Shown in pieces: positions 446 to 63,217 of a stretch of 64,000 nucleotides of DNA. Numbering within the stretch: the first letter of the stretch is position 1; every line of letters starts with the position of its first letter. The notes below the pieces were generated by a model. It was not told the origin of the DNA and searched no databases. It was given only the letters and a program-made list of their open reading frames with translations. Made by a program: the position numbers and the translations under genes. The stretch comes from an uncultured Chthonomonadaceae bacterium (lineage in GTDB: Bacteria; Armatimonadota; Chthonomonadetes; Chthonomonadales; Chthonomonadaceae): assembly GCA_963817895.1 (NCBI GenBank), contig CAWFQB010000004.1:320001-384000 (forward strand). The letters are read 5' to 3'.

Positions 446-1332
446 TGCGTCACCGAACAGCATGATTGTCTGCCGGAACCTGACCAAAGAGTTCGGCAGC
501 ATGACCGCTGTGGATAACCTCAATCTGGAAATCGGCGCGGGCGAACTGTTCGGGTTTTTAGGGCCGAACGGGGCAGGCAAAACCACGACCATTAAAATGC
601 TGATCGGGCTGTTGCGTCCCACAACCGGCATATGTCGTATCGGCGGTTTTGACGTTCACGCGCAGCCGCTCGATGCGCGGCGCGTTTTGGGCTACATTCC
701 CGACAACCCATTTTTGTACGAAAAACTGACGGGGCGCGAGTTTCTGAACTTCATGGCCGACCTGTACCGCGTATCGCAGGAACAGCGCGAGGAGCGTATC
801 CGCGACCTGCTGGAACTGCTGGATTTGAGCGACAAAGGCAACGACCTGATCGGCGGCTATTCGCGCGGTATGCGGCAGAAAATCGCCCTTGCGGGCGCGT
901 TCATCCACTCTCCGAAAGTGATTTTTCTGGACGAGCCGACGGTGGGACTTGACCCACGCGGGGCGCGTACCATGCGCGACATTCTGCGCGAAATGACCCA
1001 CCGGGGCACAACCGTCTTCATCTCCACGCACATTCTGGAAATCGCCGAACGCCTGTGCGACCGCGTCGCCATCATCAACAAAGGCCACATCATCGCGCAG
1101 GGGACGATGGACGATTTGCGGAGCATGACGGCAAAGGCAAGGGAAGAGGGAAAGGGAAAAGGGAAGAGAAGATACGAGATACGAGATACGAGATACGAGA
1201 AGGAGAGGATTCATCCTTCATCCTTCATCCTTCATCCTACCTGCTCCCTCTTCCCTTATTTCTCTGGAAGAGATATTCCTCCAACTGACTGGCACGGCGG
1301 AGAATGCGGACCCGGCGAAATATCTGGGATGA
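438..1332 (+). CDS. ABC transporter ATP-binding protein with an internal tandem-repeat insertion and a frameshift
   Basis: Walker A GPNGAGKT, signature YSRGMRQK, Walker B IFLDEP, H-loop. The typical tail SLEEIFLQLTG...KYLG* is in a different frame (1261-1332), and its TGA overlaps the next ATG. Confidence 0.85.
1139..1257. repeat. Compound heptamer-repeat hairpin inside the ABC ATPase gene
   Basis: GGGAA(G/A)A units, (GATACGA)x4 and (CATCCTT)x3-4, with outer inverted repeat aagggaagaggga / tccctcttccctt. Confidence 0.9.
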
Positions 1333-2070
1333 GAGCGGTGGATGGCATGTCCAATGCGGCGTCTGGCGGGCTGTTATTCGGGCTGATTGCGCAGAACCTG
1401 CTGTTTATTGGCATGGCGCTGTGGTGGATGCGGCGTGGAGGACGAACGTTCGCGTCTATTGGTTTGGCGCGTCCGACGCGGCGGGAAGTGGTGACAGGGA
1501 TTGGCGGCGGCGTTGCGGTTGCAATCGTGGGTTACGGGTTCGGGGAAGTGGAAGTATGGCTGTTGCGCGGACTGCTTGCGCCCGCAGCGTTTCAGCGTCT
1601 GCAGCGGTTCACGGACGCTTACGGGGCCGAACACGCTTTTCTGCAATTGCCCGCATTCTGGATGATGGCAGGTTTTGCCCTGATTGGCTCGCTGCTGGCC
1701 CCGGTTGCCGAGGAGATGCTGTTTCGGGGCGTGATTTTTCACAGTCTGCAGGAGCGGTGGCGATTTGGGAACAGGGGGCGCGATTGTCGGCAGCAGCCTG
1801 CTGTTCGCGCTTGCGCATGTCAGCCCGCTTGCCCTGTTGCCCCTGTTTCTGATGGGTATGGCGTTTGCAGCCATGTACGTCCGTACCGGTTCCCTGTGGG
1901 TTCCCATCGGGATGCATGTCGCCAATAATGCCGTCAGTTTCGCGTTGCTGGCGTGGATGGTCATGCGAGCATCTTTTGAGGAGAATGTATGGAAGCGCCG
2001 CCTTCTGAGTCCCAAGCGAATATCCCCCGTTTGCCCTGCTGTTTCCGGTTGTCGAGCGTGTTGCTTGTGA
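1329..2070 (+). CDS. CPBP (CAAX/Abi) family intramembrane metalloprotease, frameshift near 1765, 3' end uncertain
   Basis: APVAEEMLFRG (EExxxR), LFALAH and HVANN motifs split over two frames; multiple hydrophobic helices; ATGA overlap with the upstream stop. Confidence 0.8.
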
Positions 2071-3022
2071 TGGGATTGATGGGATGGCAGATGCGGCGGC
2101 GCAGCGGCCGGTGGAAATACCGGAACTGACGGCGGCGGGCAATGCGCTGAAAGCCAACAATGTCGAAAAGGCGCGGCAGCAGTTTGAGAAAGCTCTGAGC
2201 AAAGCCTCCGATACGCCGCTGCTGTATCGCGCCATAATGGGCGAGTGTACCGAAGTTGGGCCGATATGGATCTGGCCTGCGAGTACGGCGAACGCGCGAT
2301 TCAGGTCTGCCGGTACGTTCCCGAATGCGGACCGCGCGGAATTGTACGAAACGCTGGCGAGTTGTTACGCGGATGGTCACGAACCGCCGCCCGCAACCTC
2401 GCGCTATCGAGTACGCGCGCCGCGCGCTTGGAACTCGCGCCGGACGATGCCAACGCGCTGAACACTCTGGGCTATATTATGTCGGAAAACGTTCAGACGG
2501 AACCGGAAGCCAACATCGCGCTCGGCTATGTCAATCATGCGCTGAACCTGCTGCGCGAACAGGTCGGCGCTCCGCCGCGAACTGCTGGCGCTGGTCGAAG
2601 ACAGTTATGGGTGGGCGCTGTACAAGCGGGGCCGATTCCATGCGGAAGACTACGCCCACGCCGCCGATGCGCTGCGTCAGGCCATTGCGGATATACCGCC
2701 GGGGTTGCCGGACGCGGCGCAAAAAGTAATGTACTATCATCTTGGAGCCGCCTGCCGCGCCGCCGGTCAAATCGAAGAGGCGCGTCACGCGCTTCAGATC
2801 GCGCTGTTATACGACCCACAGTATGCCGAAGCGCAAAGAGGAACTGAACGCGCTTCCGCCTCAAGCGCCGTACTGCGCCTTCCAAGGGCGTTCCCACAAC
2901 GAACACAACAAACCGACGACGCTTGCCATCCCGAAAACCCCTGTCCCCGCTGTGCCGGTGCAGACACTCGGATGGCAAGCCTATCTTCAAACCCCTGCGC
3001 GACAGCAAGCCCGTCAAAATGA
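1989..3022 (+). CDS. TPR-repeat protein, broken by several frameshifts; boundaries approximate
   Basis: GAGGAG before ATG 1989. TPR-like fragments in successive frames: ARQQFEKALSK, LELAPDDANALNTLGY, DSYGWALYK, YYHLGAACRAAGQIEEARHALQIALLYDPQYAEA. Confidence 0.6.
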
Positions 3023-3169
3023 AATTCTTAACTTCTTATTTATAAAAAACTTGAAAATTCTGAAACCATCTTTAGAAGTTTTGAAGTATTCAAGAGTAGA
3101 TCGCCATCGCGAAGAGCGCGGAAGTTAAGATTCCCGTAAACGGTCCCTCGGCTGCCGGAGGAACTCTCT

Positions 3170-3583
3170 ATGGCGAAAATATTGACGCGCTGCCCCGTTT
3201 GTGAGGCCGCGCTGAAAGTAACGGAACTGACGTGCCTGCGCTGCAAAACGCAGGTGCGCAGCACGTTTGATACGTGCCGCTTTTGCCGTCTTGCGCCCGA
3301 ACATCTGGCCTTTGTGGAACTGTTTCTGCGCAATGAGGGCAATCTCAGCCGCGTGGAAAAACAACTCGGCCTTTCGTATCCCACCGTGCGCAACAAACTG
3401 TCGGCCGCGCTGGCCGCGCTGGGATTCACCGAAGAAGCCGAAAGCAACTCTGCCGTCGGACACACAGAGAACGAGGGCGGCGACTTGGAAACGCTTCAGC
3501 GCCGCCGCAATGTGCTGGAAGCGCTGGCGCGCGGCGACATTCGCGCCGACGAAGCCGCTGAACTGCTGAAAGACGTGATGTAG
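3170..3583 (+). CDS. DUF2089 family protein (Zn ribbon + HTH) with SHOCT-like tail
   Basis: CPVC...CLRC, GNLSRVEKQLGLSYPTVRNKL, tail VLEALARGDIRADEAAELL; GGAGG RBS. Confidence 0.85.
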   Translation: MAKILTRCPVCEAALKVTELTCLRCKTQVRSTFDTCRFCRLAPEHLAFVELFLRNEGNLSRVEKQLGLSYPTVRNKLSAALAALGFTEEAESNSAVGHTENEGGDLETLQRRRNVLEALARGDIRADEAAELLKDVM

Positions 3584-3684
3584 GTTGTTAGGTTGTTAGT
3601 TGTTAGGTTGCGTAGGTTCATCGTAAATGTATCCTGATTAAACCTAAAGACCTAACAACTAACAACCTAACAACTAACAACCTA
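3581..3684. repeat. Intergenic 7/8-mer tandem inverted repeat (GGTTGTTA)n...(TAACAACC)n
   Basis: The left arm starts on the DUF2089 TAG stop; the right arm 3641-3684 is its approximate reverse complement. Confidence 0.9.
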
Positions 3685-3699
3685 GTGAGGAACCCAACC

Positions 3700-5161
3700 A
3701 TGGATGAAAACGTAATGCGCGTCCTGCAAATGTTGCAGGAGGGGAAAATCAGCGCGTCAGGAAGCCGAAACGCTGATTGCCGCTTTGCGCGGCGAGTCGC
3801 CCGAATCTGCCGCCGCCGCTGCTGAAACTGAAGCGGCGGCAAGCGGGGAAGCCGAAGACAAGAAGGCGGAAAAAGAGGACAGGTCCCTGTTTGATAGCCT
3901 GCCGTTCGACAAGTTCAAGGACATCAAACCACCCAAAATCGAACTCAGCAATCTGGGCGACCGCATCTCCAAAGCCGTTGCCCGCGTACAGCCGGAAAAA
4001 ATCGTCAAGCGGGTGCAAACCGAACTGCGCAAAGCGACAAAGGCCGGAGCCAACTGGGGTACGTCCGTCACGTCGCGGGTTCGGACTTGGTCGGACGGCG
4101 AGGGCGGACGGCCTACGAACAGCATGGATTTGCCGCAGCACACCGAAAGCGTGGATCAGGAATTTCATCTGGAACCCGGCGCGAAAGTGTATGTGGAAAA
4201 CCCGCTTGGCAGCGTGAAAGTGACCGGTATCGCGGAGGGAACCGCGTCGGTTACGATCAGCAAAGTGGCGTGGGGTACGACCGTAGAGGAGGCCCAGGCC
4301 GCTGTCGCGCAAATGGAAATCAACCTGCACGGCACGGATGCGCGTCTGGACATCAAAGTGTCCACGACGGATACGTTCCGCGAGGGAACCGTTGATCTGG
4401 AACTGAAAGTACCGCGCAACGCCGCCAACGTTCGCGTCAACAGCCATTACGGGATCGTGGAATTGACGGAACTGGACGGCCTGGCGGAGGGCGTGACCAC
4501 AAGCGGCCTGCTGCATCTGCACGATCTTGGTGGCGATGTTCGGGGCGAAACCGCCAATGGCGATGTGAAAGTGGAGCGGATTGCGGGTTCGGCAACTGTC
4601 GCGTCGCAGTCGGGCGACATTACCGCCGATGATGTGAAGCGCGGCCTGATTGCCAATGCTGCCAGTGGCGACGTGAAGGCGTCCAACATCGAGGGCGGGC
4701 GCGTGGAGTGCAAGTCCGTATCGGGGGATTCCACGCTGGAAAAAGCGGGGCAGCAGAACCCGGTGGATATTGTCGTCGAGTCCGTATCAGGCAACGCCAC
4801 GCTGCTGGACGCGAGCGGCAGCATCTCCGTCAAGGCCGTATCGGGCGATGTCAAGGCGGAAAACCTTGTCGCGACTCGCTTGCAGGCGCAGACCGTGAGC
4901 GGTGATGTAACCCTGAAACTCAAAGAAGCCTTTTCCAGCACGATGCAGGTGAATACCGTTTCGGGTGACGTGACTATAGGCCTGATCGAAGGCAGCAACG
5001 TCCGCCTGTCGCTGGCAACCACGTCCGGAGACCTGAAAACCGATTTTGAGGCGCAGGACGTGAACGCGGGAGAAACCCTGTGGACAGGCGTCCTCGGAAC
5101 CGGCGCAGGAACGCTCAACGTGCAGACCATTTCGGGCGATGTGAACATTCAGAAGGGTTAG
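3700..5161 (+). CDS. DUF4097 (Toastrack/adhesin-like beta-repeat) protein with N-terminal SHOCT-like motif, frameshift near 3757
   Basis: MDENVMRVLQMLQEGKISA from ATG 3700 continues as EAETLIAAL into ORF 3785..5161; many (T/S)VSGD(V/I) repeats. Confidence 0.85.
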
Positions 5162-5238
5162 ATAGGAGATACAAGATACAAGATAAGAGGAGTTGTATGT
5201 GAGTGCCTCGTATCTCGTATCTCGTATCTCTCATCTCA
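5159..5238. repeat. Intergenic heptamer inverted repeat (AGATACA)n...(TCGTATC)n
   Basis: Starts on the TAG stop; same unit family as the GATACGA repeats found inside genes. Confidence 0.85.
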
Positions 5239-5259
5239 TCCCTTTCAAGGAGTGACCCC

Positions 5260-7080: not shown

Positions 7081-7144
7081 GCAAAGGTTGTTAGTTGTTA
7101 GGTTGTTAGGTTGTTAGCGCGCGAACCTAACAACCTAACAACTA

Positions 7145-8173
7145 GGGCCTTGTGCTAGTTAGGGAAGGCCAGTGCCTTGATCTGCAAGAACTCTGCCTTG
7201 CCGAGCAAGCGGTTTAGATAGATGCACACGGTATGGGCGGTCAACTTGGCGTACAAGCGGGTACACAAGCCCCAAAAACTATGCGCATGATTGGTTTCGA
7301 CGTTGAACTGTTGCGTGAGTTGCCCATTGACCGTCTCGATTATCTGCCGCAAACGGTTGAAGCGGTACTTGGTTTCGCGACTAACCTGTTGTTTCTGGTT
7401 GGAACGCGGCAGGGTTAGCAGACGGACATTGCGTTGGGCACACTGTTCCTTCGCTTCCTGACTGATGTAGCCTTTGTCGCCCATGACCAGCAAATTCGCG
7501 TGGGCCGACAGGATTTCCTGCCCCACGCTCAGGTCGGTTTCGTTGGCAGGGGCGAGTTCAAAGTCCAGAATAGTTCCGTTGACAGCTAACAACAAGTGCA
7601 GTTTGTAGCCGAAGATTGTCCACTTCTTGGAACTGACTTTGCCGAAGGTCGCGCCGTGTTCTTTCCAGCCGCTGCCCGCCTGCGGAGCCAGATGAAAGCC
7701 GACAACGGGAACCGGCAGGCTGTCAAGCAAGCATTGTCCATCTTGGGCTAAGTCCAACAAGCCAAGTACACCTTGACGGATCAGGTTCATCGCCTGACAC
7801 AGGGTACGGCGGCGACGATTGAAGCGCGAACGCTCGGGCAAATGCGGGAATAAGTGGCGGTACATCCGCCATTCCTGCATCATCTCCGTTTCTTTGTCCC
7901 ACCCCCGGCACTCGCCCACAAGGGCGAGCGTGAGCAATTCGGCATCACTGCACTCGGATTGGGGGCCGGGATGGGTGAACTGACTGCCGATTTCTTGCCA
8001 GATACTGTCAATCACATAGTAGACCCACAAGCAGAAGTCGTCAAAATGCGTTATCATGGAAGTGCCTTTCGTTACGCGCGGAGTTTGTGTGATGATAAAC
8101 TCTTGTACGTAACGAAGGCACAAACTGAACAAAGGACAGGCCACACAATGACGTGCTAACTAGCACAAGGCCC
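7145..8173 (-). mobile_element. IS982-family insertion sequence
   Basis: Perfect 18-bp terminal IRs GGGCCTTGTGCTAGTTAG (7145-7162 and 8156-8173), 5-bp target duplication AACTA (7140-7144 and 8174-8178), single transposase. Confidence 0.92.
7155..8057 (-). CDS. IS982-family DDE transposase
   Basis: SDAELLT, RSRFNRRRR, LDSLPVPV, FGYKLH, GDKGYIS, RQIIETVNGQL; stop codon lies inside the IR. Confidence 0.92.
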   Translation of the reverse strand: MITHFDDFCLWVYYVIDSIWQEIGSQFTHPGPQSECSDAELLTLALVGECRGWDKETEMMQEWRMYRHLFPHLPERSRFNRRRRTLCQAMNLIRQGVLGLLDLAQDGQCLLDSLPVPVVGFHLAPQAGSGWKEHGATFGKVSSKKWTIFGYKLHLLLAVNGTILDFELAPANETDLSVGQEILSAHANLLVMGDKGYISQEAKEQCAQRNVRLLTLPRSNQKQQVSRETKYRFNRLRQIIETVNGQLTQQFNVETNHAHSFWGLCTRLYAKLTAHTVCIYLNRLLGKAEFLQIKALAFPN

Positions 8174-8198
8174 AACTAACAACCTAACAACTCAAACC

Positions 8199-15220: not shown

Positions 15221-15234
15221 CGTTTCGCTCCAAT

Positions 15235-15348
15235 CAGGTTGTCAGGTTGTCAGGTTGTCAGGTTACAGCCGGATTACACATACCAGAATTGAGTGGTCTT
15301 TGTAACTAAATAACCTAACAACTAACAACCTAACAACCTAACAACCTA
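15235..15348. repeat. Intergenic 7/8-mer inverted tandem repeat (CAGGTTGT)n...(TAACAACC)n
   Basis: On the minus strand it starts on the TAG stop (15346-15348) of the GT2 gene. Confidence 0.88.
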
Positions 15349-17329
15349 CTCCCGACTGTGGAGTTCGCCTGCGGCGCGAATGTCGCCATCCTTGATAATA
15401 CTTCGACGGATGAAATGCGGTCGCTGCTTCACTTCTTCAAAGATTTTAGCGATATATTCGCCGATGATACCGAGCGCGAAAAGATTCACGGCCCCGAAAA
15501 ACAGAATCGCGATTAGAACGGTGGTGATACCGGCGGGCGCGGAGGCGGGGAACAGGATTTTCGCGATAATCTGCACGAACGCCAGTCCGATTGCAATCAC
15601 GAACATCAGCGTGCCGAAGTAACTGAGCATGGTCAGCGGCGTGTTGCTGTACGAGAGTATCCCTTTTTTGGCCCACCCGATGTTTTTGCCCAGGCTGTTG
15701 GTGGTTTTGCCGAACCTCCGCTCCGGGCGAACGTAGTCCACGCCGATTTGCTTGAAGCCGACAAATGCCCGCACCCCGCGCAGGAACAAATCCCGCTCCG
15801 GGAATTTCAGCATGTTCTGCACCACGCGATAATCCATCAGAGAGAAATCGCCCGCATCGTGGGGAATGGTCAGATACGAAAACTTGTCGAACAGGCGATA
15901 AAATGCTTTATACGCGATCTGCATCAGGAATGTGGCTTCGCGCTTAATACGCTTGCCATAAACCACATCATAGCCCTTCGCGCCATTTTTCCACGAACTC
16001 CGCGATGAGTTCGGGCGGGTCCTGCAAATCGCCGTCCAGCAGAACCGCCGCGTTTTTCGTCATGATCTCCATGCCGCTGCGGAAGGCCGCCTGCGAACCG
16101 AAATTGCGCGAGTGGGAAATGCCGATAACGCGCCGGTCGTTGCGCGAAATGCCGCGTATCACCTCTTCGCTGTCGTCGGGGCTGCAATCGTTGACCAGAA
16201 TGATCTCGTACTCGATGCGCAGGCTTTCAAACGTTGTTTTCAGCCGCTCCACCATGATGGGAATGGCCTGCCCGTCCTTGTAGCAGGCCACAATCGCGCT
16301 CACGCTGTATTTGGTATCCAGCCCGAATTTTTTGGAGGATTGGTGATACCGCTCTTTGTTTTCAATGCCTTTGTACCATGCGACCATGCGCAATAGTCCG
16401 TCTTCAAAACGGGTGCGCGTCTGCCAGCCCAACCTCTCTCTGGCGCGGATAGGATTGGCGTACCAGTCCGACACGTCCCAGGCGCGGGCTTCGGCCTTGA
16501 AAACCGGCTCCTCCTGAATCTCGAACACCTTTTTGGCGGCTTGCGCGATGTCGGCAATGGTGGTTTTGCAGCCGCTGCCGATGTTGAACGACTTGCCATA
16601 ATCCTGTTCGCGCAGGTTCAGGGCGGTATCCACAAACGCTTCCGTCACATCATCCACGTACACAAAGTCGCGCGAAATATCCGGGCGCACGAACTCCGGG
16701 TAGCGGCCCTCCAGCCCGTTCTTAATCAGCGTGGGGAGCAGGCGCGAACTGTCTTCCAGCGGGCCGAACACCGAATACAGGCGCAGATTGGCGCAGGGAA
16801 ATTTTTTGTGCGTCCCATAGTAGCGCAGCAGGTTGGCGCAGGCCACTTTGGAAACCGAATAGTCGCTGTTGGGTTCGGGCAGTTCCTCTTCGCCCGGTCC
16901 GCTGGCATGGTCGCCATACTCGGAACTGCTGCCGGAATGGACGTAGCAGGCAATTCCCCGTCCCGCCAGTCGCGCCACGAGTTTGGCGGTCATGTTGAAA
17001 TTGGTCTGATAAATCAACGCGCCATCGGTTTCAAAGGAGTACGCGCCATACGCGATGCAGTTGAAAATAGTGCGGGGGCAAACGTCGTCCAGCAGCGCGT
17101 CCAGGTTGCTGTCCACCAGCAGGTCGGTCACGCGAATGTGTTCTTCCGCAATGCCCTCCAGCCGCCAGGTGGGGACATGCGTTGCCGTTCCGAATACGTC
17201 CTTGCGCGTGGCAAGCAGCGTCCGAAAAAGGTTTGCGCCCACAAAGCCGCTCGCGCCCAAAACTAAAATAGGGCCTTGCAGTTTATTGATTTTCTGTTCC
17301 AAGTCTGTCATATCAGCTGTCATATCCAA
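15346..17329 (-). CDS. NAD-dependent epimerase/dehydratase (SDR) fused to a GT2 polyprenyl-phosphate glycosyltransferase, frameshift near 15975
   Basis: GASGFVG, SSSEYG and YSVSK, then in the same frame VNDCSPD, SRNFGSQ and DGDLQDPP. GYDVVYG..GDFSLMD and two C-terminal TMs follow in the next frame (extra G in a GGG run). Confidence 0.85.
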
Positions 17330-26960: not shown

Positions 26961-26994
26961 CCGAACACCGAACACCGAACACCGAACACCGAAC
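26961..26994. repeat. Heptamer tandem (CCGAACA)x4-5 between the transketolase subunits
   Basis: ccgaacaccgaacaccgaacaccgaacaccgaac; no partner arm seen. Confidence 0.85.
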
Positions 26995-28188: not shown

Positions 28189-28232
28189 GTTAGTTAATAG
28201 TTGATAGTTGAGAAGAACTCCAAACTTTCAAC
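28189..28232. repeat. Degenerate heptamer hairpin (TAGTTGA)n...TCAAC
   Basis: gttagttaatagttgatagttgag...ctttcaac; same unit as 63170-63217. Confidence 0.55.
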
Positions 28233-34298: not shown

Positions 34299-37218
34299 AT
34301 GGCCGAGCAAGCCGAAATCTCCGATCTGGATACCCCTGTACCATCTAATACTCCGCCTCCCACCATTGCCCAAACGGGAAAAAAACTGGTGCTGGTGGAT
34401 GCGTACGCGCTGCTGTTTCGCGCGTTTTTCTCCGGGCGCTATCTGTCTACAACTGACAACCGGCCAACGGGCGCGTTGTTCGGCTTTACCAACATGATAC
34501 TGTCCATTCTCAACAACGAGAAGCCGGACGCCATTGTGGTCTGTTGGGACGCGCCGCACCGGACGCACCGCAGCGTGGCCTTTGAAGAGTACAAAGCGCA
34601 TCGCCCGCCCGTAGACCCGCAACTATCCGCGCAGCAGCCGGTTGCCCGTGAAATCGTGGCCGCGTTCGGCATACAATCGGCGGAAATGGCCGGGTATGAG
34701 GCCGACGACCTGATTGGGACGCTGGCGCGACAGGGCGTTCAGGACGGCTACCATGTCATTGTGCTGACCGGCGATTCGGATACGCTGCAACTGGTCAACG
34801 ACCATGTTCATGTGCAGATTACGCAGCGCGGCGTGTCGGAAGTGAAGGTTTACGACGAGGCCGCCGTGCGGGAGCGGTACGGCATCGGGCCGGAGTGTAT
34901 CGCGGATTTCAAAGCGCTCACGGGCGACACCAGCGACAACATTCCGGGCGTACCCGGCATTGGCGACAAAACCGCGTCCGCCCTGCTGCAAAAGTTCGGT
35001 TCGCTGGAAAAACTGCTGCAAGTGGCGGAAGCCGGGGGCGAGGGCATCGCGCCGCCCAAAGCCAAAGCCGCGCTGGAAGCCAATGTAGAGCAGGCGCGGT
35101 TCTCGAAAAAACTGGCAACCATTGTCTGCGACGCGCCGATGGAATTCGCCATCGAACCCTACGCGCCAACCGAAGCCAACTGGCAGGACGCGCGGCAGAA
35201 GTTTCACGAACTGGAATTCAAGTCGCTGTTAGGCCGCCTGCCCGCGCCGAGCAAAACGGGAGCGGGAACAGCGGAGGATGCGGCGGAAGAGCGGCGCGTT
35301 CCCGAAGCCACGTTCAGCGCGGTTGGCATTGCCATTCATTCGCTGGAAGAGTTGGCGGACGCCCTTGCCGCCGTCCAGAAAAGCAAAACGGCTGGTATCC
35401 GCTTTGAAACCGATGGCGAACTGCCCATGCTCGCTACCCTGACCGGGTTGGCCTTTGCCCCTTCCAGAGAGGTTAGTTATTACGTCGCTATACGTGATGC
35501 CGCGCCCGCCGCAACGCCTGCAATCGCCGCGATTTCAACCGCCAATGCGCAAACCGGGTTGTTCGATGAAGACACCGTAGAGGAACAGGTAGCAAGTAAA
35601 AAGGCAAAAGGCAAAGGGAAAAAGCAGGAAGCGCAAAATCCAATAGATGAGAATAGATTTGCGGTCAGCATAGAAGATTTACAACCCCTGTTTGAAGACG
35701 CCGCAATCAATAAAACCGGTTACAACGTCAAACCGCTGGAAATCATTCTGGAACGGGCGGGCGTGAAGGTTGCGCCGTTCACCTTTGATGTGCTGATTGC
35801 CGCGTATCTGCTGGAAGCGGGGCGCTCCTCTTACCCCCTCCTCGATCTGGCGGAAACGCATCTCGACGCGGTTGTGGAAGCCGATGACGCCTATGTGGAG
35901 GGCGCGATGCTGATGCAGGAGTCCGCGCTGCTTGTGGCACTTGTGCCGCCTCTGCGCGAAGCCCTTGCCGCCGTGAAAATGACAGACATCATGGACACGA
36001 TGGAAATGCCGCTCGTGCCTGTGCTGTGCAAAATGGAGCAGGCGGGACTTGGCGTGGACGTGCCATATCTCAGCACACTTGGCGAACGCATGGGCCGACA
36101 GATGGACGCGCTTGCCGAAGAGATTTACACTCTTGCGGACGAGCGGTTCAACATCGGTTCCATCAAAAAACTACAGGAGATTCTGTTCGACAAACTGCAA
36201 TTGCCATCCGGCAAAAAGACCAAGACCGGGTATTCCACAGGCGCGGACGTGCTGGAAGCGCTGGCAGTGGAACACCCCATCGCCCGCAAAATCATTGACT
36301 GGCGCGAAATCGCCAAGCTGAAATCCACGTATGCCGACGCGCTGATTCGCCTTATCAATCCCGAAACCGGGCGCGTCCATACCAGCCTGAACCAGACGGT
36401 TGCAAGCACGGGACGCTTGAGTTCGTCCGACCCGAACCTGCAAAACATCCCTATTCGCAGCGAAATCGGGCGCGAAATCCGGCAGCGCGTTTATCGCGCC
36501 CAAAGGCAAAATGCTGCTGTCGTGCGATTATTCGCAGGTGGAACTGCGGCTGCTTGCCCATGTCACCGGCGACCCGACATTGACGCAGGCGTTTCTCGCG
36601 GATGAGGACATTCACAAAGCCACTGCCGCGCAGGTCTTTGAGGTTCCTCTCGAAGAGGTCACATCCGATCAGCGGCGGCAGGCGAAAACCATCAATTTCG
36701 CCGTGATTTACGGGCAGTCCGGCTTCGCGCTTGCGGCCATGCTGGGCGTCGGCACGGGCGTCGCGACCACATGGATCAAGGAATACTTCGAGCGGCTGCC
36801 CGGAGTTAAGAAATACGTAGACGATACCACCGCGCTCGCCCACAAGCAAAAGTACGTGCAAACCCTGCTTGGCAGGCGGCGTTACGTGCCGGAACTCGAC
36901 AGCGGCAATGCGCAGGTGCGGCAGGCGGCGGAACGCGCAGCCGTCAACATGCCCATTCAGGGCACGGCTGCCGACATCATTAAACTCGCCATGATCCACG
37001 TCAAGAAGTACCTTGACGAAACCTGTCACGACGGCTGTACCCTGCTGCTTCAGGTGCATGACGAACTGCTGTTCGAGGTGGATGCCGACATGGTGCAGAC
37101 CATCACGCCCGAAATCAAGCGTATTCTGGAATCCGCCTTTCCGCTCAACGTTCCCCTCCGCGCCGACGCCAAGTACGGGCAAACGTGGGCGGAAATGTCG
37201 CCCGTGCAAACGAAATAA
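34299..37218 (+). CDS. polA: DNA polymerase I, frameshift near 36485
   Basis: 5'-3' exonuclease motifs (EADDLIGT, GDTSDNIPGVPGIG), TGRLSSSDPNLQNIP, motif A DYSQVELR, motif B AKTINFAVIYG, motif C QVHDEL. Confidence 0.95.
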
Positions 37219-37321
37219 ACCACGGGGAACACGGGGGACACGGGGAGAAGAGTGGAAATGAGAGAAAAACTGCTTTCTCTTCCCTTCTCCTCCCCGTGTC
37301 CCCCGTGTTCCCCGTGGTTTA
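37216..37321. repeat. Cargo-free nonamer inverted-repeat hairpin between convergent genes
   Basis: Perfect 32-bp IR TAAACCACGGGGAACACGGGGGACACGGGGAG (37216-37247 and 37290-37321); each end contains the TAA stop of a flanking gene. Confidence 0.92.
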
Positions 37322-45454: not shown

Positions 45455-48088
45455 ATGAGTGTACAGGAACATAACAGCGGAAGAAACGGCAGGGGCAGCA
45501 GGCGACAGCATTGCGCCGCGCGACACATACAAATTGTATTAACGCTCGGCCTCGCCATGCTATCCCTTGCCGCCGCGTGTCAGCAGGCGCGTCAGGGAAC
45601 AGTAGGGAGCCAGGGAGATAGGGAGACAGGGACACACGGAGACAAGGAGCCTCAATCAAAAATCGAAAATCGAAAATCGGCAATCCCTTCATCCCTCATC
45701 CCTCATCCCTCATCCCTGAGTGATATTCGTCCGCTTCTGGAAGCGAAATGTCTGGGCTGCCATGGGGTGGGGAACCGATTGGCGGGACTGGATTTGCGAA
45801 CCCGCGAGTCCGCGCTGAAAGGTGGGACGCGGGGCGCGGCGTTTGTGCCGGGTAAATCCGATAAAAGCCTGCTGATACAACTGGTCAATGGCAATCGCGC
45901 GCCCCTGATGCCGCCAACCGGCAAACTGCCTGCCGGAGAAATCGCCCTGCTCAAACATTGGATTGACAGCGGCGCGACATGGCCTTCGGGCGCGATCACC
46001 AAAGCGCAGCCGCAAGTGTGGTGGTCGTTTCGCGCGCCTAAAACGCCGCCCATTCCCAATATCCATTCCGCGTGGATACGCAACCCCATTGACGCTTTTG
46101 TACTTGCCAAACTTCAGGAAAACGGCTTGAAGCCGTCCCCGCCCGCGCCCCGTCGCGTTCTCATTCGCCGCGCCTATTTCGACCTGATTGGCCTGCCGCC
46201 CACGCCCGCCGAAACGGAAGCGTTTCTTAACGATAAATCTCCGACTGCTTGGGAAAAGGTTGTGGATGGCCTGCTGGCTTCACCGCGCTATGGCGAACGG
46301 TGGGGACGGCACTGGCTGGATTTGGCGCGTTATGCCGACAGCGGCGGGTTTGAGGGCGACAAAGACCGGACGCTCGCGTGGCGGTATCGCGACTACGTGA
46401 TAGACGCCTTCAATCAGGACAAGCCGTACAACGAATTTGTGCGCGAACAGATTGCGGGCGACGAACTCAAGCCCAATGACCCCAACGCCCTCATCGCCAC
46501 CGGCTATCTCGCCTGCGGGCCGCAGGACATTGTGGAAAACAACGCCCGAACCCGCGCCAACGAACTCGATGACCTTGTGGCGACAACGGGTTCAGTCATG
46601 CTCGGCCTGACTGTGGGTTGCGCCCGCTGCCACGACCACAAATACGATCCGGTCAAGCAGACGGATTATTACCGGCTGTCCGCCATTTTCGCCCCGACCG
46701 AACGGCGCGAAGTGGAGTGCGCGAGTGTGGAAGAGCGCCGCGTGGTTACGGAACATAACGCGCCCCTGGAAAAACAACTGGCTGCGTTGCGTCCACAGGC
46801 GGACGCTTTGCGCAAGCAGGGCGAAGAAGCGGCGAAAAAGGCGGGACAGGCAAAGCCCGATGACGCGCAAATACTCGCCGCGCTGCCGCAAACACAGCGC
46901 GGGCAACTTCAAGCCTTGCAACAGCAAATCAAGGGACTGGAAGCGCAGCGCATGGACGTTCCCCACGCGCAAGTCGTTATGGACAAAGGCCGCGACTTTC
47001 CCGCCGCGCATTTATTATTGCGCGGCGACGCTTATCATCCCGGCGATGAGGTGAAACCCGGCTTCGTGTGTTCCCTTCCGGATGGCGCGACCGACATCGC
47101 TCCCGCCCCCGCGAACGCGACCACAACCGGCAGGCGTACCGCGCTTGCCGACTGGCTGACAAGCGCGCAAAATCCGCTCACCGCCCGCGTGTGGGTCAAC
47201 CGCGTCTGGCGGCAGCACTTCGGCAGAGGCTTGGTCAACACCCCAAGCAACTTCGGACTGAATGGCGAACTCCCTTCCCACCCGGAACTGCTGGACTGGC
47301 TGGCAAGCCGCTTTGCTGCAAAGGATGAAGGCGGAAGGATGAAGGATGAAGGGAAGATACGAGATACAAGATACGAGATACGAGAAGGAGAGAATTCATC
47401 CTCCATCCTTCATCCTTCATCCTTTGCATGGCATCTCAAACCTCTGCACCGCCTGATGCTGCTTTCGTCCACGTATCAGCAGGCGTCGGATATGCGCGAG
47501 GAGGGGATGAAAGCCGACGCGCAGGATAAATACTACTGGCGGATGCCTGTGCGCCGGTTGGAAGCCGAACCTATCCGCGACAGTATTCTGAAGCTGGCCG
47601 GAAGTTTGAATTTGCAGATGGGCGGCCCGCCCGTGTATCCGCCCATTGACCCGTCCCTGCGCGCCGACACGTTTCAAGGCCCCAACTGGCATGATGGCGA
47701 GGATGGGCCTTCCACATGGCGGCGCAGCGTGTACGTCAAGGTGAAACGCTCGACTCTCCTGCCCGAACTGGAAGTGTTCGACTGCCCGGAAATCACGTAC
47801 ACCGTCGCGCAGCGCAATGTCACGACCACGCCCCTGCAAGCCCTGACCCTGCTCAACGATCCGCTGATTCTGCGGCAGGCGGGATTGTTCGCGCAGCGGC
47901 TCCAAAAAGAGTATCCCGACAATCCGCGTCAACAGGTAGAACGCGCCTACCAATTAGCCTTTAGCCGACTGCCCTCCGCGCAGGAATTAAGTCTAAGTCT
48001 AGCGTTTATGCAAAAGCGCGACGCGTCCGCCCTGCCCGACTTCTGCCACGCCCTGTTCAACCTGAACGAGTTCGTCTACGTGCCATAA
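45455..48088 (+). CDS. Planctomycete cytochrome c / DUF1549 / DUF1553 (PSD1) protein with two repeat-derived inserts
   Basis: CLGCH, NPIDAFV, YGERWGRHWLDLARYAD, GCARCHDHKYDP, SHPELLDWLA, RRLEAEPIRD, TPLQALTLLN, NEFVY. Confidence 0.92.
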   Translation: MSVQEHNSGRNGRGSRRQHCAARHIQIVLTLGLAMLSLAAACQQARQGTVGSQGDRETGTHGDKEPQSKIENRKSAIPSSLIPHPSSLSDIRPLLEAKCLGCHGVGNRLAGLDLRTRESALKGGTRGAAFVPGKSDKSLLIQLVNGNRAPLMPPTGKLPAGEIALLKHWIDSGATWPSGAITKAQPQVWWSFRAPKTPPIPNIHSAWIRNPIDAFVLAKLQENGLKPSPPAPRRVLIRRAYFDLIGLPPTPAETEAFLNDKSPTAWEKVVDGLLASPRYGERWGRHWLDLARYADSGGFEGDKDRTLAWRYRDYVIDAFNQDKPYNEFVREQIAGDELKPNDPNALIATGYLACGPQDIVENNARTRANELDDLVATTGSVMLGLTVGCARCHDHKYDPVKQTDYYRLSAIFAPTERREVECASVEERRVVTEHNAPLEKQLAALRPQADALRKQGEEAAKKAGQAKPDDAQILAALPQTQRGQLQALQQQIKGLEAQRMDVPHAQVVMDKGRDFPAAHLLLRGDAYHPGDEVKPGFVCSLPDGATDIAPAPANATTTGRRTALADWLTSAQNPLTARVWVNRVWRQHFGRGLVNTPSNFGLNGELPSHPELLDWLASRFAAKDEGGRMKDEGKIRDTRYEIREGENSSSILHPSSFAWHLKPLHRLMLLSSTYQQASDMREEGMKADAQDKYYWRMPVRRLEAEPIRDSILKLAGSLNLQMGGPPVYPPIDPSLRADTFQGPNWHDGEDGPSTWRRSVYVKVKRSTLLPELEVFDCPEITYTVAQRNVTTTPLQALTLLNDPLILRQAGLFAQRLQKEYPDNPRQQVERAYQLAFSRLPSAQELSLSLAFMQKRDASALPDFCHALFNLNEFVYVP
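45593..45717. repeat. In-frame compound repeat (AGGGAGAC)n-(AAAATCG)n-(CATCCCT)x4
   Basis: Encodes QGTVGSQGDRETGTHGDKEPQSKIENRKSAIPSSLIPHPSSL just before the cytochrome c domain. Confidence 0.88.
47321..47424. repeat. In-frame heptamer hairpin (AAGGATG)n-(GATACGA)x4-(CATCCTT)n
   Basis: Encodes KDEGGRMKDEGKIRDTRYEIREGENSSSILHPSSF; the core is nearly identical to 1168-1237. Confidence 0.92.
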
Positions 48089-48997: not shown

Positions 48998-50482
48998 ATG
49001 GCGGAACATGACGATCATAGTGGGCCGGACACCATTGCGCGGCGGGACTTTCTGGCGCGCGCGGGCGGCGGCATCGGCGGACTGGCGCTGGCGTTTCTGC
49101 TCGGCGAAGAGGGCGCTTCAGGAGAAGGGGTCAGGAGTCAGGCGGCAGGGGACAGGGGAAAACCACTGCTCGACACCCAAAACCCTTTGTTTCCGAAAAA
49201 GCCGCATTTCGCGCCCAAAGTGAAGCGGGTGATTTCCTTATTTATGTTCGGAGGAATCAGCCATATTGATACGTTCGACCCGAAAAGCGAACTTATCAAG
49301 CAGGATGGCGCTTCGGTTGCGGGGCGTCCCGGCTTTGATACGGGCGGGCGGAGCGCGCCCGGGAAACTGATGAAAAGCCCCTGGCAGTTCAAGCCCTATG
49401 GACAGTGCGGAATGCCCGTGTCCGACCTGTTGCCCCACATCGGAAGCTGCGCCGACGATATTGCCCTGATTCGTTCCATGAAGTCCGACAGCAATAACCA
49501 CGTTCCGGCTGTGTACCACATGCTGACCGGCAGTATTTTGAGTGGCAGGCCGGGATTGGGCAACTGGATTACCTATGGATTGGGAACCGAAAACCAGAAC
49601 CTGCCCGCGTTTGTCGTAATGACCGATCCGCGCGCTCTTGTCGGCGGCGGCGCGGGCAACTGGAGCGCGGGCTTTCTTCCCTCCAACTATCAGGGCGTAC
49701 AGTTCCGCAGTCAGGGTTTGCCAGTTCTCAACCTGAAGCCGCCCGCAGGCGTGACGCCCGAAAAGCAGCGCGAACATCTGGATTTCATCGGGAAACTCAA
49801 TGAGGAGTTTCTGCGCGGACGTCCGGGCGAGCAGGAATTGGCGGCGCGAATACGGGCGTATGAACTGGCGTATCGAATGCAGTCGGAAGCGACTGAAGCC
49901 GTAGATTTGAGCCGCGAGTCCGAAGCCACGAAAACCCTGTACGGTCTGGACAAACCCCAAACCGAAATCGTCGGGCGGCAATGCCTGCTGGCGCGTCGGC
50001 TGGTGGAGCGCGGCGTTCGGTTCGTGCAGATCTATTCGGGCGGCGGCGTGTTCGACCAGAGTTGGGACGCGCATAACGCGATGGTTCCCAACCACACGAT
50101 GCGGGCGGGCGAAATTGACCTGCCGATAGCCGGATTGATTCGCGACCTGAAACAGCGCGGTCTATTTGAAGATACCCTGCTCGTGTTCCATACCGAGTTT
50201 GGCCGGATGCCGTTTACCGAGGGCAGCGTGGGCCGTGACCACAACCCCAAAGCGTTTTCCGTGTGGCTGGCGGGCGGCGGCATTAAAGGCGGGACCATCT
50301 ATGGCGCGTCCGATGAAATCGGCTATGTCGCGTCGGAAAACGTCCAGACGGTGTACGACCTGAACGCCACCATTCTGCACCTGCTCGGTCTGGAACACAC
50401 CCATCTGACCTATCAATACGGTGGCCGCAACATGCGCCTGACCGACGTAAGCGGCGAAGTCATTCATCCTATATTGGCGTAA
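48998..50482 (+). CDS. DUF1501 family protein (Tat-like signal)
   Basis: RRDFL, GGISHIDTFDPK, ARRLVERGVRFVQ, WDAH, EFGRMP, GRDHNP. Confidence 0.92.
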   Translation: MAEHDDHSGPDTIARRDFLARAGGGIGGLALAFLLGEEGASGEGVRSQAAGDRGKPLLDTQNPLFPKKPHFAPKVKRVISLFMFGGISHIDTFDPKSELIKQDGASVAGRPGFDTGGRSAPGKLMKSPWQFKPYGQCGMPVSDLLPHIGSCADDIALIRSMKSDSNNHVPAVYHMLTGSILSGRPGLGNWITYGLGTENQNLPAFVVMTDPRALVGGGAGNWSAGFLPSNYQGVQFRSQGLPVLNLKPPAGVTPEKQREHLDFIGKLNEEFLRGRPGEQELAARIRAYELAYRMQSEATEAVDLSRESEATKTLYGLDKPQTEIVGRQCLLARRLVERGVRFVQIYSGGGVFDQSWDAHNAMVPNHTMRAGEIDLPIAGLIRDLKQRGLFEDTLLVFHTEFGRMPFTEGSVGRDHNPKAFSVWLAGGGIKGGTIYGASDEIGYVASENVQTVYDLNATILHLLGLEHTHLTYQYGGRNMRLTDVSGEVIHPILA

Positions 50483-57145: not shown

Positions 57146-57166
57146 GGCTCTCGATTCTAAAGTAGT

Positions 57167-60643: not shown

Positions 60644-60669
60644 TGCTGTTCCTTCCCCGTCATCTACTA

Positions 60670-61098
60670 TCAAAGCCAGTCCTCAACAATCAATGTTGAA
60701 TGACTTTTGATGTCTTCAAAGATTTTATCGGCAGAGAGTAGCTTCGCGCGGTTTACAATGACTATGCATGCTATTTGCAAATCCATCGTTCCACATGCGC
60801 GTAACTCTCTGATTTGTTTCAGGCGTACAAATTCTGTGGCCGCTCTGTCGTCGAACGGCAACAATATCCACTCCGCAAAGAACTCAAAAATCTGATGCAG
60901 ATAATGATAAGGAGGCACCTTCTCGTGTGCAGTCTTCGCTTTATTGATCTCTGACAAACACCCATTCACCGCTTCATGTACGGTAATGATGTTTGTGCAA
61001 ACATCTTCTCCGCTTGCCTGTAGTTTGCGCATCAACTTGTCACATGCGATCCCCGGTCTTCTGAGTACCCGCATGTGATTAGATTCTACGATGATCAT
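60670..61098 (-). CDS. PIN domain (VapC-like) toxin
   Basis: IITVHE, LPFDDRAA, GTMDLQIA, EDW tail; the first catalytic Asp appears as Glu (VESNH). Confidence 0.8.
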   Translation of the reverse strand: MIIVESNHMRVLRRPGIACDKLMRKLQASGEDVCTNIITVHEAVNGCLSEINKAKTAHEKVPPYHYLHQIFEFFAEWILLPFDDRAATEFVRLKQIRELRACGTMDLQIACIVIVNRAKLLSADKIFEDIKSHSTLIVEDWL

Positions 61099-61422: not shown

Positions 61423-62928
61423 TTACGCGATCAGTTCGGGAATCACGTTGCCGTATACGTCGGTCAGTCGGTAGTCGCGTCCGGCGTAGCGGTACGTGAG
61501 ATGCGTATGGTCGAAGCCCAGCAATTTTAGCTGCGTGGCGTGAAGGTCGTGGACATGGACGGGTTTTTCCTGCGCTCGGAAGCCGAAATCGTCTGTTGCG
61601 CCGTAGGTTTGACCGCCCTTGACGCCGCCGCCCGCCATCCACATCGAAAAGCCCCAGTGGTTGTGGTCGCGCCCGTTCTGCTTGCCCGCGTTCGAGCCGG
61701 GAGTGGGCAGTTCCACAGTGGGCGTTCGCCCGAACTCGCCGCCCCAGATAACGAGCGTGTCTTCCAGCATCCCGCGCTGTTTGAGGTCTTTGAGCAGCGC
61801 GCCGATCGCCTGATCGGTTTGACGGGCAAGGGCGCGGTGGCCGTCCGCAATATCGTCGTGGTTGTCCCAGGGCTGGCCCGCGCCCGTGTACAGTTGCAGG
61901 AACCGGACGCCGCGCTCCAGCAAACGGCGGCCAATCAGCAGTTGGCGGGCATACACGCCCTCGCCGTACATTTCGCGGATATGCGCGGGTTCCTTGCTGA
62001 TGTCGAAAGCGTCCGTAGCGTCCATCTGCATCCGATACGCCAGTTCAAACGACTGGATACGCGACTCTAGCTGCGCGTCTTCTTCGCGCTGCGCCGCGTG
62101 TTTGGCGTTCAATTCGTGCAGCAAATCCAACTGCTGCCGCTGCGCGGGCATGGACTCGTAGTTGTTCTTGATATGCTCGATGACCTTCTGCATGTCGGTT
62201 TGCGATGGGTCAATATAGGTTCCCTGATACACGCCGGGGAGAAAACCGGCCTGCCAGTTCTGCGTGTCCTGAATGGGATAGCCGCCCGGACACATGGCGA
62301 TGAAACCGGGCAGGTTCTGGTTTTCGGTTCCCAATCCGTATGTCACCCACGAACCCATGCTTGGGCGCACCAGTCGTCCCTCGCCGCAGTTCATCAGCAG
62401 CAGGGACGGCTCATGGTTCGGCACATCGGCATGCATGGAGCGGATCACGGCAATGTCGTCAATGCAGCTTGCCATGTGGGGGAAGATTTCCGACACTTCG
62501 ATGCCCGATTGCCCGTGTTTTTCAAATTTGAAAGGCGACCCGAAGCAGGTTCCCGTTTTGCGCTCGGTGGGAAGCGTGGAATAGGGCAGGGGCTTGCCGT
62601 GATACTGCGTCAGCATCGGCTTGGGATCGAACGTATCTACGTGCGACGGCCCGCCATTCATAAACAGAAAAATTACGCGCTTGGCGGTAGCGGGAAACGG
62701 CGGCTGCTTCACGGCCAACGGATTCAAGGAGGGTGATTGGTGGTTGGTGACTGGTGGTTGGTGGGAAGACTGAGTTCCCCCTTTTCCCTTGCCAGCCTTC
62801 CCATCTGCCAGCGCGATGTCGCTCAACAGCCCGGTCAGGCCGAGCGCGGCGAAGCCGTTGCCCATGCGCGACAGCATTTCCCGCCGCGTCAGAAACATGT
62901 CTTTCCAGTCAAAATTGCCGTGCGCCAT
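61423..62928 (-). CDS. DUF1501 family protein (Tat-like signal)
   Basis: TRREML, GGPSHVDTFDPK, RRLLERGVRF, WDNH, EFGRTP, GRDHNH. Confidence 0.92.
   Translation of the reverse strand: MAHGNFDWKDMFLTRREMLSRMGNGFAALGLTGLLSDIALADGKAGKGKGGTQSSHQPPVTNHQSPSLNPLAVKQPPFPATAKRVIFLFMNGGPSHVDTFDPKPMLTQYHGKPLPYSTLPTERKTGTCFGSPFKFEKHGQSGIEVSEIFPHMASCIDDIAVIRSMHADVPNHEPSLLLMNCGEGRLVRPSMGSWVTYGLGTENQNLPGFIAMCPGGYPIQDTQNWQAGFLPGVYQGTYIDPSQTDMQKVIEHIKNNYESMPAQRQQLDLLHELNAKHAAQREEDAQLESRIQSFELAYRMQMDATDAFDISKEPAHIREMYGEGVYARQLLIGRRLLERGVRFLQLYTGAGQPWDNHDDIADGHRALARQTDQAIGALLKDLKQRGMLEDTLVIWGGEFGRTPTVELPTPGSNAGKQNGRDHNHWGFSMWMAGGGVKGGQTYGATDDFGFRAQEKPVHVHDLHATQLKLLGFDHTHLTYRYAGRDYRLTDVYGNVIPELIA
62731..62802. 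repeat. In-frame heptamer array (CACCAAC-like x4) plus a G/A-rich arm in DUF1501
   Basis: Encodes GKAGKGKGGTQSSHQPPVTNHQSP after the Tat signal. Confidence 0.75.
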
Positions 62929-63121
62929 GCGTACCGTCTCCTGATGTGGCCTGAGCCTTGAAAGTGCGATTTAGAGTTCGTATGTGGGTTTATTATATCG
63001 TATTTGTCGCGCGAATGCCGACCATTTTGAAGGGGCGGCAACACAAGATGGTTAGACGCGCCTGACCGATTTTAGTGACGAATTTTGCAGCGCGTACTCT
63101 GGCATATACGCGCCACGCGCT

Positions 63122-63156
63122 AAAAAGCCGAAACGCTTTTTGCAGAGCGTTCCGGC
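63122..63156 (-). terminator. Putative intrinsic terminator of the S8 protease gene
   Basis: Imperfect stem gccgaaacgct/agcgttccggc followed by a U-run on the minus strand. Confidence 0.55.
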
Positions 63157-63169
63157 AATGAACTTTGGT

Positions 63170-63217
63170 GATGAGTTGAAGCAGTTACTATCAACTATCA
63201 ACCATCAACTCTCAACT
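63170..63217. repeat. Heptamer array (ACTATCA)n abutting the S8 stop codon
   Basis: actatcaactatcaaccatcaactctcaact with a short partner arm tgatgagttgaa. Confidence 0.75.

Follow-up and report, generated by a model that had tools for sequence, protein, structure and literature searches.

Tandem inverted-repeat elements at stop codons of a Chthonomonadaceae genome and their link to four-helix-bundle and GxxExxY gene cassettes

Introduction

Arrays of tandem heptamers have been reported from unrelated bacteria for decades without an origin, and parts of one such report speak of "no mechanism evident" (PMC4679880). Two widespread protein families, the four-helix bundle PF05635 and GxxExxY (PF13366), likewise stand without a function. 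Here we analyze a 64,000-nt stretch of an uncultured Chthonomonadaceae bacterium (hereafter the window; C4:320,001-384,000 of the G000 assembly, 7.48 Mb in 14 contigs, 81% complete), in which short tandem arrays lie between and inside genes. Our preferred reading, to which we assign a probability of roughly 0.55, is that these arrays are gene-less descendants of two horizontally spread small cassettes, and that occupied sites are overwritten repeatedly through DNA cut-and-repair. One cassette design, a period code (7/8 versus 9/10) and the exchange of repeat units, here called words, make both puzzles directly testable.

The closest described system is the S23p intervening sequence (IVS) of Coxiella, an element excised by RNase III and carrying heptamers in its stem (Warrier et al. 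2016, PMC4990558). As described in parts of that paper, it holds a PF05635 gene between complementary ends, was horizontally acquired, and its gene decays; the stem contains the tandem heptamers GACAGAT/GACAGAA, a word class also present in G000 and in its congener G002. The likeness extends to a gene-less copy within the 23S gene of G000 itself and to two gene-bearing copies elsewhere in G000, each with a PF05635 gene between complementary termini that contain heptamers. The differences concern placement and number. The window loci and both gene-bearing G000 copies lie among protein genes and not in an rRNA helix, and G000 has hundreds of copies between or inside protein genes, a second cargo with period-9 arms, and word exchange at fixed sites. 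The elements work like a gene-less derivative of the S23p cassette spread genome-wide.

Paired hepta- and octanucleotide sites of Geobacter metallireducens (Aklujkar et al. 2009, PMC2700814) also comprise 3-5 tandem units on opposite strands, in several words, between and within genes and with insertion sequences beside them; they were interpreted as regulator-binding, and the accessible parts of that paper contain no cargo genes, filled/empty comparison or word swapping. The G-rich heptamers of Xanthomonas and Nostoc (Rehm et al. 2015, PMC4692102) and the TAACTGA repeats of Beggiatoaceae (MacGregor 2015, PMC4679880) share with our elements a G-rich strand within 50 bp after stops, a location between co-directional genes, inverted pairs, and a stop-free orientation inside genes. 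In the portions of these reports at hand, each study treats one word as a stable quadruplex or regulatory repeat, whereas G000 has dozens of words that are tied to cassettes and turn over. Many of the top G000 words lack a GGG run. Repetitive extragenic palindromic doublets forming hairpins (REPINs) and their associated tyrosine transposases (RAYTs) share the hairpin of an inverted doublet and spacer, and the pattern of many gene-less and few gene-bearing copies (Bertels and Rainey 2011, PMC3116915; Quentin et al. 2018, PMC6006769). They differ in that the G000 arms are tandem arrays, the loops are unique, 30% of loci lie in genes, placement is non-random, and the Y1 transposases of G000 carry other repeats (none of its three PF01797 genes has tandem arms).

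Cyanobacterial short tandemly repeated repetitive (STRR) sequences are heptamer arrays of a comparable class. Rickettsia palindromic elements are a single palindromic family of non-coding-type repeats that insert in frame and add peptide segments; in-frame insertion is shared, whereas the in-gene copies of G000 are mostly non-palindromic modular mosaics of many words. Both the arrays and the rRNA intervening sequence with its gene are already in the literature, and their link and the swapping of words are new as far as we found. Our literature search, judged mostly by title and limited to journals outside subscription, returned no tie of such arrays to four-helix-bundle or GxxExxY genes outside rRNA and no word exchange, although enclosed genes may be listed in the supplements of PMC2700814 and PMC4692102.

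Array census

Window loci were identified with Tandem Repeats Finder and by inspection of the sequence, and all 15 loci named in an earlier note on this stretch lie where it had placed them. Genome-wide we counted 1,182 tandem arrays in the 7.48 Mb of G000 (766 of period 7, 340 of period 8, 25 of period 9, 41 of period 10 and 10 of period 5-6), compared with none in 1 Mb of an order-5 Markov simulation. The 1,172 arrays of period 7-10 merge into 817 loci, and the modal copy number is four (608 of 1,172 arrays). Within the window, a strict detector found 12 loci versus 0-1 in each of ten codon-block shuffles, beyond what shuffled sequence predicts. The commonest G000 word is AAAAGGAG. Word spectra differ between congeners: ACGAGAT occurs 125 times in G000 and not at all in our G002 sample (1.05 Mb of ~8 Mb), while AGGCATT occurs once and 20 times, respectively. 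Gene positions come from a purpose-built hexamer gene caller, and all genic and non-genic counts are therefore approximate.

The G000 assembly contains numerous one-base errors, seen in the split polA and apgM genes and as indels against public contigs, and errors of this number would be the starting point for viewing the arrays as long-read assembly artefacts. The same array type recurs in two other genomes (G001 and G002), in dozens of others, and in short-read contigs from three public runs, and the arrays obey strict polarity and codon logic. An artefactual origin is accordingly unlikely for the arrays as a class, and a long-read fault is an explanation to which we give practically no credence. 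Extra single bases relative to public contigs at window positions 2010-2323, 6383, 36486 and 39162-39214 account for several split genes and are probably assembly errors.

Cargo genes

G000 encodes two PF05635 and four PF13366 genes, and all six lie between inverted tandem arms that start at the upstream stop codon. Elsewhere we surveyed relatives and members of the phylum, together with 45 loci from other phyla, dropping partial matches and flanks shorter than 150 nt. Arms were present at 52 of 77 four-helix-bundle loci (period 7 in 42, period 8 in 7, unclear in 3), with the G-rich arm first in 47, and at 20 of 27 GxxExxY loci (period 9 in 10, period 10 in 1, unclear in 9). Matched controls showed arms at 0 of 68 and 0 of 26 loci for the two sets. 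The association with these two gene families, to which the earlier note had pointed, is borne out. Its phrase "structure rather than sequence" holds insofar as words vary freely; it fails in that period follows cargo family and word follows protein, the latter weakly (rho −0.13, p = 0.015, 33 loci, with kin not independent).

The words around the three G002 four-helix-bundle genes (AGGGAAC-type, AGTAGTC and AAAAGGAG) are among the commoner gene-less words of that genome. Cassette neighbours are varied operon genes of the carA/carB, argF/argG and lpxA/lpxB types, as well as restriction-modification genes. In the 144 of 186 neighbour stretches scanned, we found no transposase, integrase or reverse-transcriptase domain beside a cassette and hence no mobilising enzyme there; nor did any of the 144 hold a cognate transposase sharing terminal repeats, the genome's transposases not having all been surveyed. 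Period-7/8 arrays occurred in 5 of 15 genomes with a four-helix-bundle gene and in 1 of 13 without (p = 0.095; samples of 15-80 kb).

Both gene-bearing four-helix-bundle copies of G000 lie among protein genes, and only gene-less copies sit in the rRNA operon. The latter are heptamer-armed hairpins at C4:874,977 and C4:878,971, one of them within the 23S match; the arms 2.7 kb upstream of this match lie in what we take, from its motifs, to be the 16S gene. The window copies are all without a PF05635 gene.

The GxxExxY protein was modeled with a predicted local distance difference test score (pLDDT) of 94.7 and shows a PD-(D/E)XK core with invariant E34, D74, E84, K86, Q98 and Y102. Its top structural matches are Cas4 and restriction-like nucleases (Z 7.8, root-mean-square deviation 4.3 over 100), and on this model it is a predicted Cas4/RecB-like PD-(D/E)XK nuclease fold; a sequence search of the PDB gave no match. 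For the four-helix bundle, the best PDB relative is the five-chain, pentameric Xcc0516.

Other candidate partners were considered and dropped. HUH/RAYT and DUF559 genes, which the earlier note had listed among those to look for between arms, carry repeats of other kinds, and the single reverse transcriptase gene of G000 has no arms. Repeats named STIR, with HUH enzymes, are absent from the accessible text of PMC6006769. Two RAYT-like Y1 transposase genes (G000 C5:223,662 and C2:68,237) have their own REP-like repeats, sometimes inside tandem-armed loops, and the DUF559 genes at G000 C1:437,988 and C5:310,841 have a long palindromic repeat family of their own on either side, with no relation to the tandem arms. 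The reverse transcriptase (G000 C6:132,735-134,165) has a long N-terminal extension and lies on a different contig from either four-helix-bundle gene.

Polarity and stop codons

The elements are strongly polar. The order is G-arm then C-arm in 222 of the 817 loci and the opposite in one; among complementary arms at most 150 nt apart, 141 are G-then-C and 8 C-then-G. Inverted repeats occur in 320 of 570 non-genic loci versus 31 of 247 intragenic loci, where adjacent modules are non-complementary in 147 cases and complementary in 8. The architecture proposed earlier, a G-rich arm followed by its C-rich complement, therefore describes the intergenic copies and not those in genes.

Intergenic copies are mostly hairpins that begin at a stop codon. 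In 181 of 642 cases the outer end of the G-rich arm falls between −5 and +10 nt from a stop on the same strand, compared with 4 of 322 for lone C-rich arms, and the stop codon lies within the stem in 82 of the 255 paired elements between co-directional genes. Paired non-genic elements occupy 255 of 3,976 co-directional, 45 of 731 convergent and 20 of 729 divergent gaps. In co-directional gaps with at least 60 nt to spare, 7.9 of 67 elements would be expected at 10 nt or less from the stop and 35 are found there, indicating that sites are not uniform. As the earlier note had observed in the window, stop-containing units are kept to intergenic space: they make up 4 of 402 intragenic arrays (coding strand) versus 432 of 770 non-genic arrays (either strand).

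Five intergenic window loci form stable hairpins, with z values from −5 to −14. Stem mismatches on the transcribed strand comprise 62 G-U and 76 A-C pairs; there is no G-U excess, which fits a DNA-level stem and argues against selection on RNA structure, a candidate we rejected, although arms also occur in the rRNA operon and RNase III is encoded. This bears on the view that the elements serve host regulation, as hairpins at operon junctions that RNase III processes or as protein-binding arrays there, evolving in place by slippage and arm-to-arm correction with the small genes as passengers. Stable hairpins directly after stops and the depletion in divergent gaps would suit such a role, and an RNase III gene is present; in the Coxiella IVS this enzyme cleaves the heptamer stem (PMC4990558), and regulatory roles have been proposed for such arrays in parts of PMC2700814 and PMC4679880. 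A few orthologous pairs also have related words and similar loops. Against this stand the lack of RNA-strand bias, the tight coupling of period to gene family across phyla, sites that are empty in G001, the absence of arrays from most relatives sampled, and the G002 word TTAGGCA, opposite which at least five unrelated words, and unrelated loops, stand in G000. We consider the regulatory explanation improbable, though the elements may have a secondary effect on mRNA.

The same strand data weigh on RNA homing, in which a four-helix-bundle protein homologous to Avd would escort element RNA to a reverse transcriptase encoded elsewhere, and error-prone cDNA would replace elements and make their loops unique. 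PF05635, with its pentameric relative Xcc0516, resembles Avd, the accessory protein of diversity-generating retroelements, according to parts of PMC10053308; the elements are co-oriented in operons and present in rRNA genes, G000 has one reverse transcriptase, and replacement at fixed sites is what retrohoming does. Yet that enzyme is armless, and, as distinct from a diversity-generating retroelement, no reverse-transcriptase domain lies within 1 kb of the Avd-like gene in the neighbour stretches scanned. Moreover, no G-U bias marks the transcribed strand, adenine-rich arms are near-perfect (~4% stem mismatches), unlike adenine-mutagenic cDNA, and the GxxExxY families are not covered. RNA homing thus seems to us a poor candidate.

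Comparison with relatives

G002 and G001 are congeners of G000, and G002 flanks average 82% identity. G002 has elements made of other words at window loci 1139, 3581, 5159, 15232 and 47318; several further window loci are without mappable flanks in relatives. Near 50482 the window is without an element, and G002 has a nested one of 234 nt. Cassette sites show the same range of states. Two that hold a gene in G002 or G023 are gene-less in G000 (L053, L055); two filled sites face armless ones (L072, L107), one faces a lone arm (L081), and three are filled in both genomes (L084, L090, L101). This comparison covers the remainder of 24 loci after 15 without a paired orthologue or with a short flank, and L105 faces unrelated genes. 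Filled, gene-less and empty states thus exist at orthologous sites, the presence/absence polymorphism that the earlier note had called for.

Of the 175 loci in the 1.05-Mb G002 sample, 117 could be mapped to G000. The word was the same in 8, differed by one mismatch in 3 and was different in 32; 39 sites were of similar length without an array at threshold, and 35 were shorter. About three quarters of the 35 similar-length cases inspected by eye had sub-threshold arms. Only one site looked plainly inherited, arms and loop included, between G000 and G002.

We also compiled an unbiased table of junctions, in which 175 of 392 orthologous co-directional junctions were mapped between G000 and G002. 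Both genomes were occupied at 33, G002 only at 29, G000 only at 7 and neither at 106 (odds ratio 17, p = 3e-12), such that 33 of 40 occupied G000 junctions are also occupied in G002, where ~14 shared would be expected from the margins. Of these 33 junctions, 20 have different words, 3 have words one base apart and 10 have the same word. Arms are therefore exchanged at fixed sites, as the earlier note had supposed of a cassette-exchange system, and the different word at the congener's same position likely reflects an undescribed copying process that overwrites sites. Arms of one family also nest inside those of another and fill some loops.

The loops between the arms are AT-rich (43.5% GC) and mostly 45-65 nt long, with an inner AATGC...GCATT motif enriched to 53 occurrences versus 15 expected (302 strands). 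MITEs (miniature inverted-repeat transposable elements) have copies that are homogeneous including their interior, a target-site duplication, and a cognate transposase sharing their terminal repeats. Only 5 of 277 G000 loops are matched by another over nearly their full length, and 38 have any 18-nt segment in common with another, the few matches elsewhere being nested arms. For target duplications among the 320 elements, whose ends are fuzzy, 4-mers numbered 84 versus 58 in shuffles, and 5-mers and longer were not enriched. Because their loops are unique, the elements are not ordinary MITEs, and they do not qualify as REPINs either. MITE-like copying was rejected because the loops are unique, and the data, with no clear target duplication, do not support the earlier note's notion in the form of a simple non-autonomous mobile element duplicated whole.

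A related explanation dispenses with overwriting: independent MITE- or REPIN-like insertions by a transposase acting in trans would enter favoured junctions and often be lost cleanly, so that differing words represent separate arrivals. Clean empty sites do exist, inverted doublets fold as hairpins like REPINs (PMC3116915), three Y1 transposase genes are present, and the hugging of stops even in long gaps would follow from favoured junctions. Uniqueness of the loops, the lack of a clear target duplication, the unrelated repeats of the Y1 and DUF559 genes, and the absence of transposase, integrase and reverse-transcriptase domains from the 144 of 186 neighbour stretches scanned all count against it, as does the excess of shared junctions over the margins. 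We regard independent insertion as unlikely.

In-gene copies

About 30% of the loci (247 of 817) lie inside called genes. An inverted repeat is lacking in 216 of them, and their words are many; most are mosaics whose stop-free modules do not complement one another. The length difference from the congener's orthologue is divisible by three in 18 of 26 in-gene cases, compared with 27 of 91 outside genes. Translation of in-gene arrays gives recurring predicted peptides such as EEKEKRRKGE, IRDTRYEIR and SSFILHPSSF, in keeping with the earlier proposal that the elements create new peptide loops. Given the share of loci in called genes, the arrays are a putative source of new protein sequence.

Proposed mechanism

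The comparisons reveal a shared architecture, filled, gene-less and empty states, persistence of sites with the word of both arms and the loop changed, nesting, and exclusion of stop-bearing words from coding strands. We hold the descriptive part of the cassette reading with high confidence; the cut-and-repair mechanism is tentative, at somewhat less than even odds. In this scheme, a cassette would land at a stop-codon/ribosome-binding-site junction and lose its interior. Its arms of ~30 bp would extrude as a DNA hairpin or cruciform, which the GxxExxY nuclease would cut, and the four-helix-bundle pentamer may act as a repeat-binding adaptor for period-7/8 arms. Repair would then use another element as the template for the arms, the resemblance of the purine-rich outer ends serving for priming, and the copy number would return to about four by slippage. 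Within genes, selection would retain stop-free modules, yielding non-complementary mosaics translated as low-complexity loops.

Several observations weigh against the cassette reading. Its main unexplained feature is the presence of unique loops between near-perfect arms, which whole-element copying within the genome does not explain. Ten of the 15 four-helix-bundle genomes had no period-7/8 array in their samples, G001 has some such arrays without a four-helix-bundle gene, and several dominant G000 words (AGATACG, AAGGATG) have no resident cassette in the 81%-complete assembly. Ten of the 33 shared junctions have the same word in both genomes, uneven site quality could inflate co-occupancy without any overwriting, and mosaics that are unable to fold also turn over, as at 1139. 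Structural matches of GxxExxY are middling, Z 7.8 being the best, with no Foldseek match at E ≤ 0.001 and no cruciform specificity. No intermediate, excised form or activity was observed.

A broader and more doubtful possibility is that the elements form a transposase-free mobile class. Here the cassette's own protein would read the repeat period, home to stop junctions, overwrite residents, sometimes bracket unrelated genes, and rewrite loops in hundreds of host proteins; such a class would be a common source of heptamer repeats and of gene-bearing rRNA intervening sequences.

Window loci

Near the 3' end of an ABC ATPase gene, the plus-strand mosaic insert at 1139..1259 comprises an AGGGAAA module, four copies each of AGATACG and TTCATCC, and a tail complementary to the first module. 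As assembled, it is out of frame, 37 nt longer than the congener's insert, and its translation departs from the conserved C-terminal motif; since the assembly has many one-base errors, an in-frame status is nonetheless likely. G002 has other modules here (AATGATG/CTCATCA).

Three plus-strand paired elements follow. At 3581..3684, an GTTGTTAG arm runs from the TAG stop of a DUF2089 gene and an CTAACAAC arm lies before the next ribosome-binding site (z −8.8); G002 has TTAGGCA arms at this site, G001 is empty, and in a public contig of about 92% likeness, 83 different letters take the place of 3572-3687. The element at 5159..5243 has AGATACA and CTCGTAT arms, again from a TAG stop (z −5.1). Its counterpart in G002 has TTAGGCA arms that provide the last codons and the stop, and G001 is empty. 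At 7085..7144, GTTGTTAG and CTAACAAC arms begin 4 nt past a TGA stop, and the right arm is broken by a minus-strand IS982-family insertion sequence (7145..8173) with 18-bp terminal inverted repeats and a 5-bp AACTA target duplication; the remainder of the arm is recognizable on the plus strand at 8174..8193. This IS982 is a passenger, not the mobiliser. Four identical copies exist (this one and G000 C1:1,495,401, C1:805,581 and C3:336,364), and since three of the four have CTAACAAC-type arm sequence at the left junction, IS982 may favour such arms. Beside it, a small minus-strand gene of an 18-nt coding repeat, rich in Met/Asp/Lys/Gly (8290-8610), is kept in G002 and is unrelated to the arms.

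A minus-strand, paired period-8 element at 15232..15350 lies between two minus-strand genes and overlaps the upstream stop (z −7.5); G002 has GATGAAT-type arms there. A lone GTTCGGT arm (26961..26994, minus strand) follows the stop of one transketolase subunit gene at a distance of 5 nt and immediately precedes the next. The lone degenerate TAGTTGA arm at 28190..28213 (plus strand) falls within a conserved non-coding stretch (~28100-28270) that has a paralogue near G000 C1:987,231 and two copies per genome in G000 and G002. The length of the arm varies among these copies. The stretch looks like a structured RNA; Rfam gave no match in the window, nor at 27900-28600.

The plus-strand degenerate AAAAGGC array at 35599..35626, a weak member, is in frame in the lysine-rich linker of DNA polymerase I (polA). 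Exactly between two convergent TAA stops, with no strand assigned, lies a paired gene-less CACGGGGAA element (37219..37318, z −13.8), whose arm family is that of the GxxExxY cassette at G000:C6:254,409.

The in-frame, plus-strand mosaic at 45604..45717, of AGGGAGAC, AATCGAA and ATCCCTC modules, lies upstream of the cytochrome-c-like domain of a DUF1549/DUF1553 protein and forms no real hairpin (z −1.75). A nested, in-frame plus-strand element (47318..47427) splits a DUF1553 domain, with AAGGATG/CATCCTT outer arms around an AGATACG module; one left-arm copy is altered where an in-frame TGA would arise. A degenerate in-frame G-rich arm (49121..49159, plus strand) occupies the leader of a DUF1501 protein and has an extra AATCGGC module in G002. 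The leader of a second DUF1501 protein contains a minus-strand, in-frame mosaic (62732..62795), a degenerate purine arm followed by an AACCACC array, and G001 has no array there. Finally, a GTTGATA-type arm (63170..63217, minus strand) extends from the TAA stop of a subtilase-domain gene and has a short degenerate partner.

The armed 182-residue gene

The earlier note had listed the locus at 33489 among its intergenic loci. We find that it is not a lone arm and pairs with 34176-34205 around an open reading frame of 182 aa, and this pairing around an unrelated gene is new here. On the plus strand, the left arm, of the CACGGGGAA family with period 9 (33492..33549), starts right after a TGA stop. 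The gene (33550..34098) encodes a hydrophobic N-terminus and is neither a four-helix bundle nor GxxExxY. An unpaired inner right arm of TTTCGCGT type follows, and then the right arm complementary to 33492-33535 (together 34145..34205). The gene has no Pfam match, and an atlas search returned unnamed clusters only (best 0.90). Homologues are 52% identical in G002, where the left arm differs and a matching right arm is missing, and 32% in G019, without arms; none was found in 39 of 42 family genomes.

The CACGGGGAA family comprises 89 fuzzy arms, 18 of them paired and 16 tightly, with one pair around GxxExxY and one around the 182-aa gene. Two lone arms could have come together by chance, though this is improbable. 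Our census of enclosed genes (12 rows) missed one four-helix-bundle and one GxxExxY cassette and hence is not exhaustive, and several of its rows are genes between two separate elements.

Other features

In G001 (L040, ~11,750-11,850), a period-9-type paired element with another word lies upstream of polA, behind a different upstream gene. An AT-rich, HEPN-like gene pair without arms occupies window positions 48121-48985, at the DUF1553/DUF1501 junction, and a four-helix-bundle gene stands at this type of junction in two other phylum genomes (L162, L175). The window also contains a second DDE transposase gene (42374-43192) and a PIN-domain toxin-antitoxin-like pair (60380-61098).

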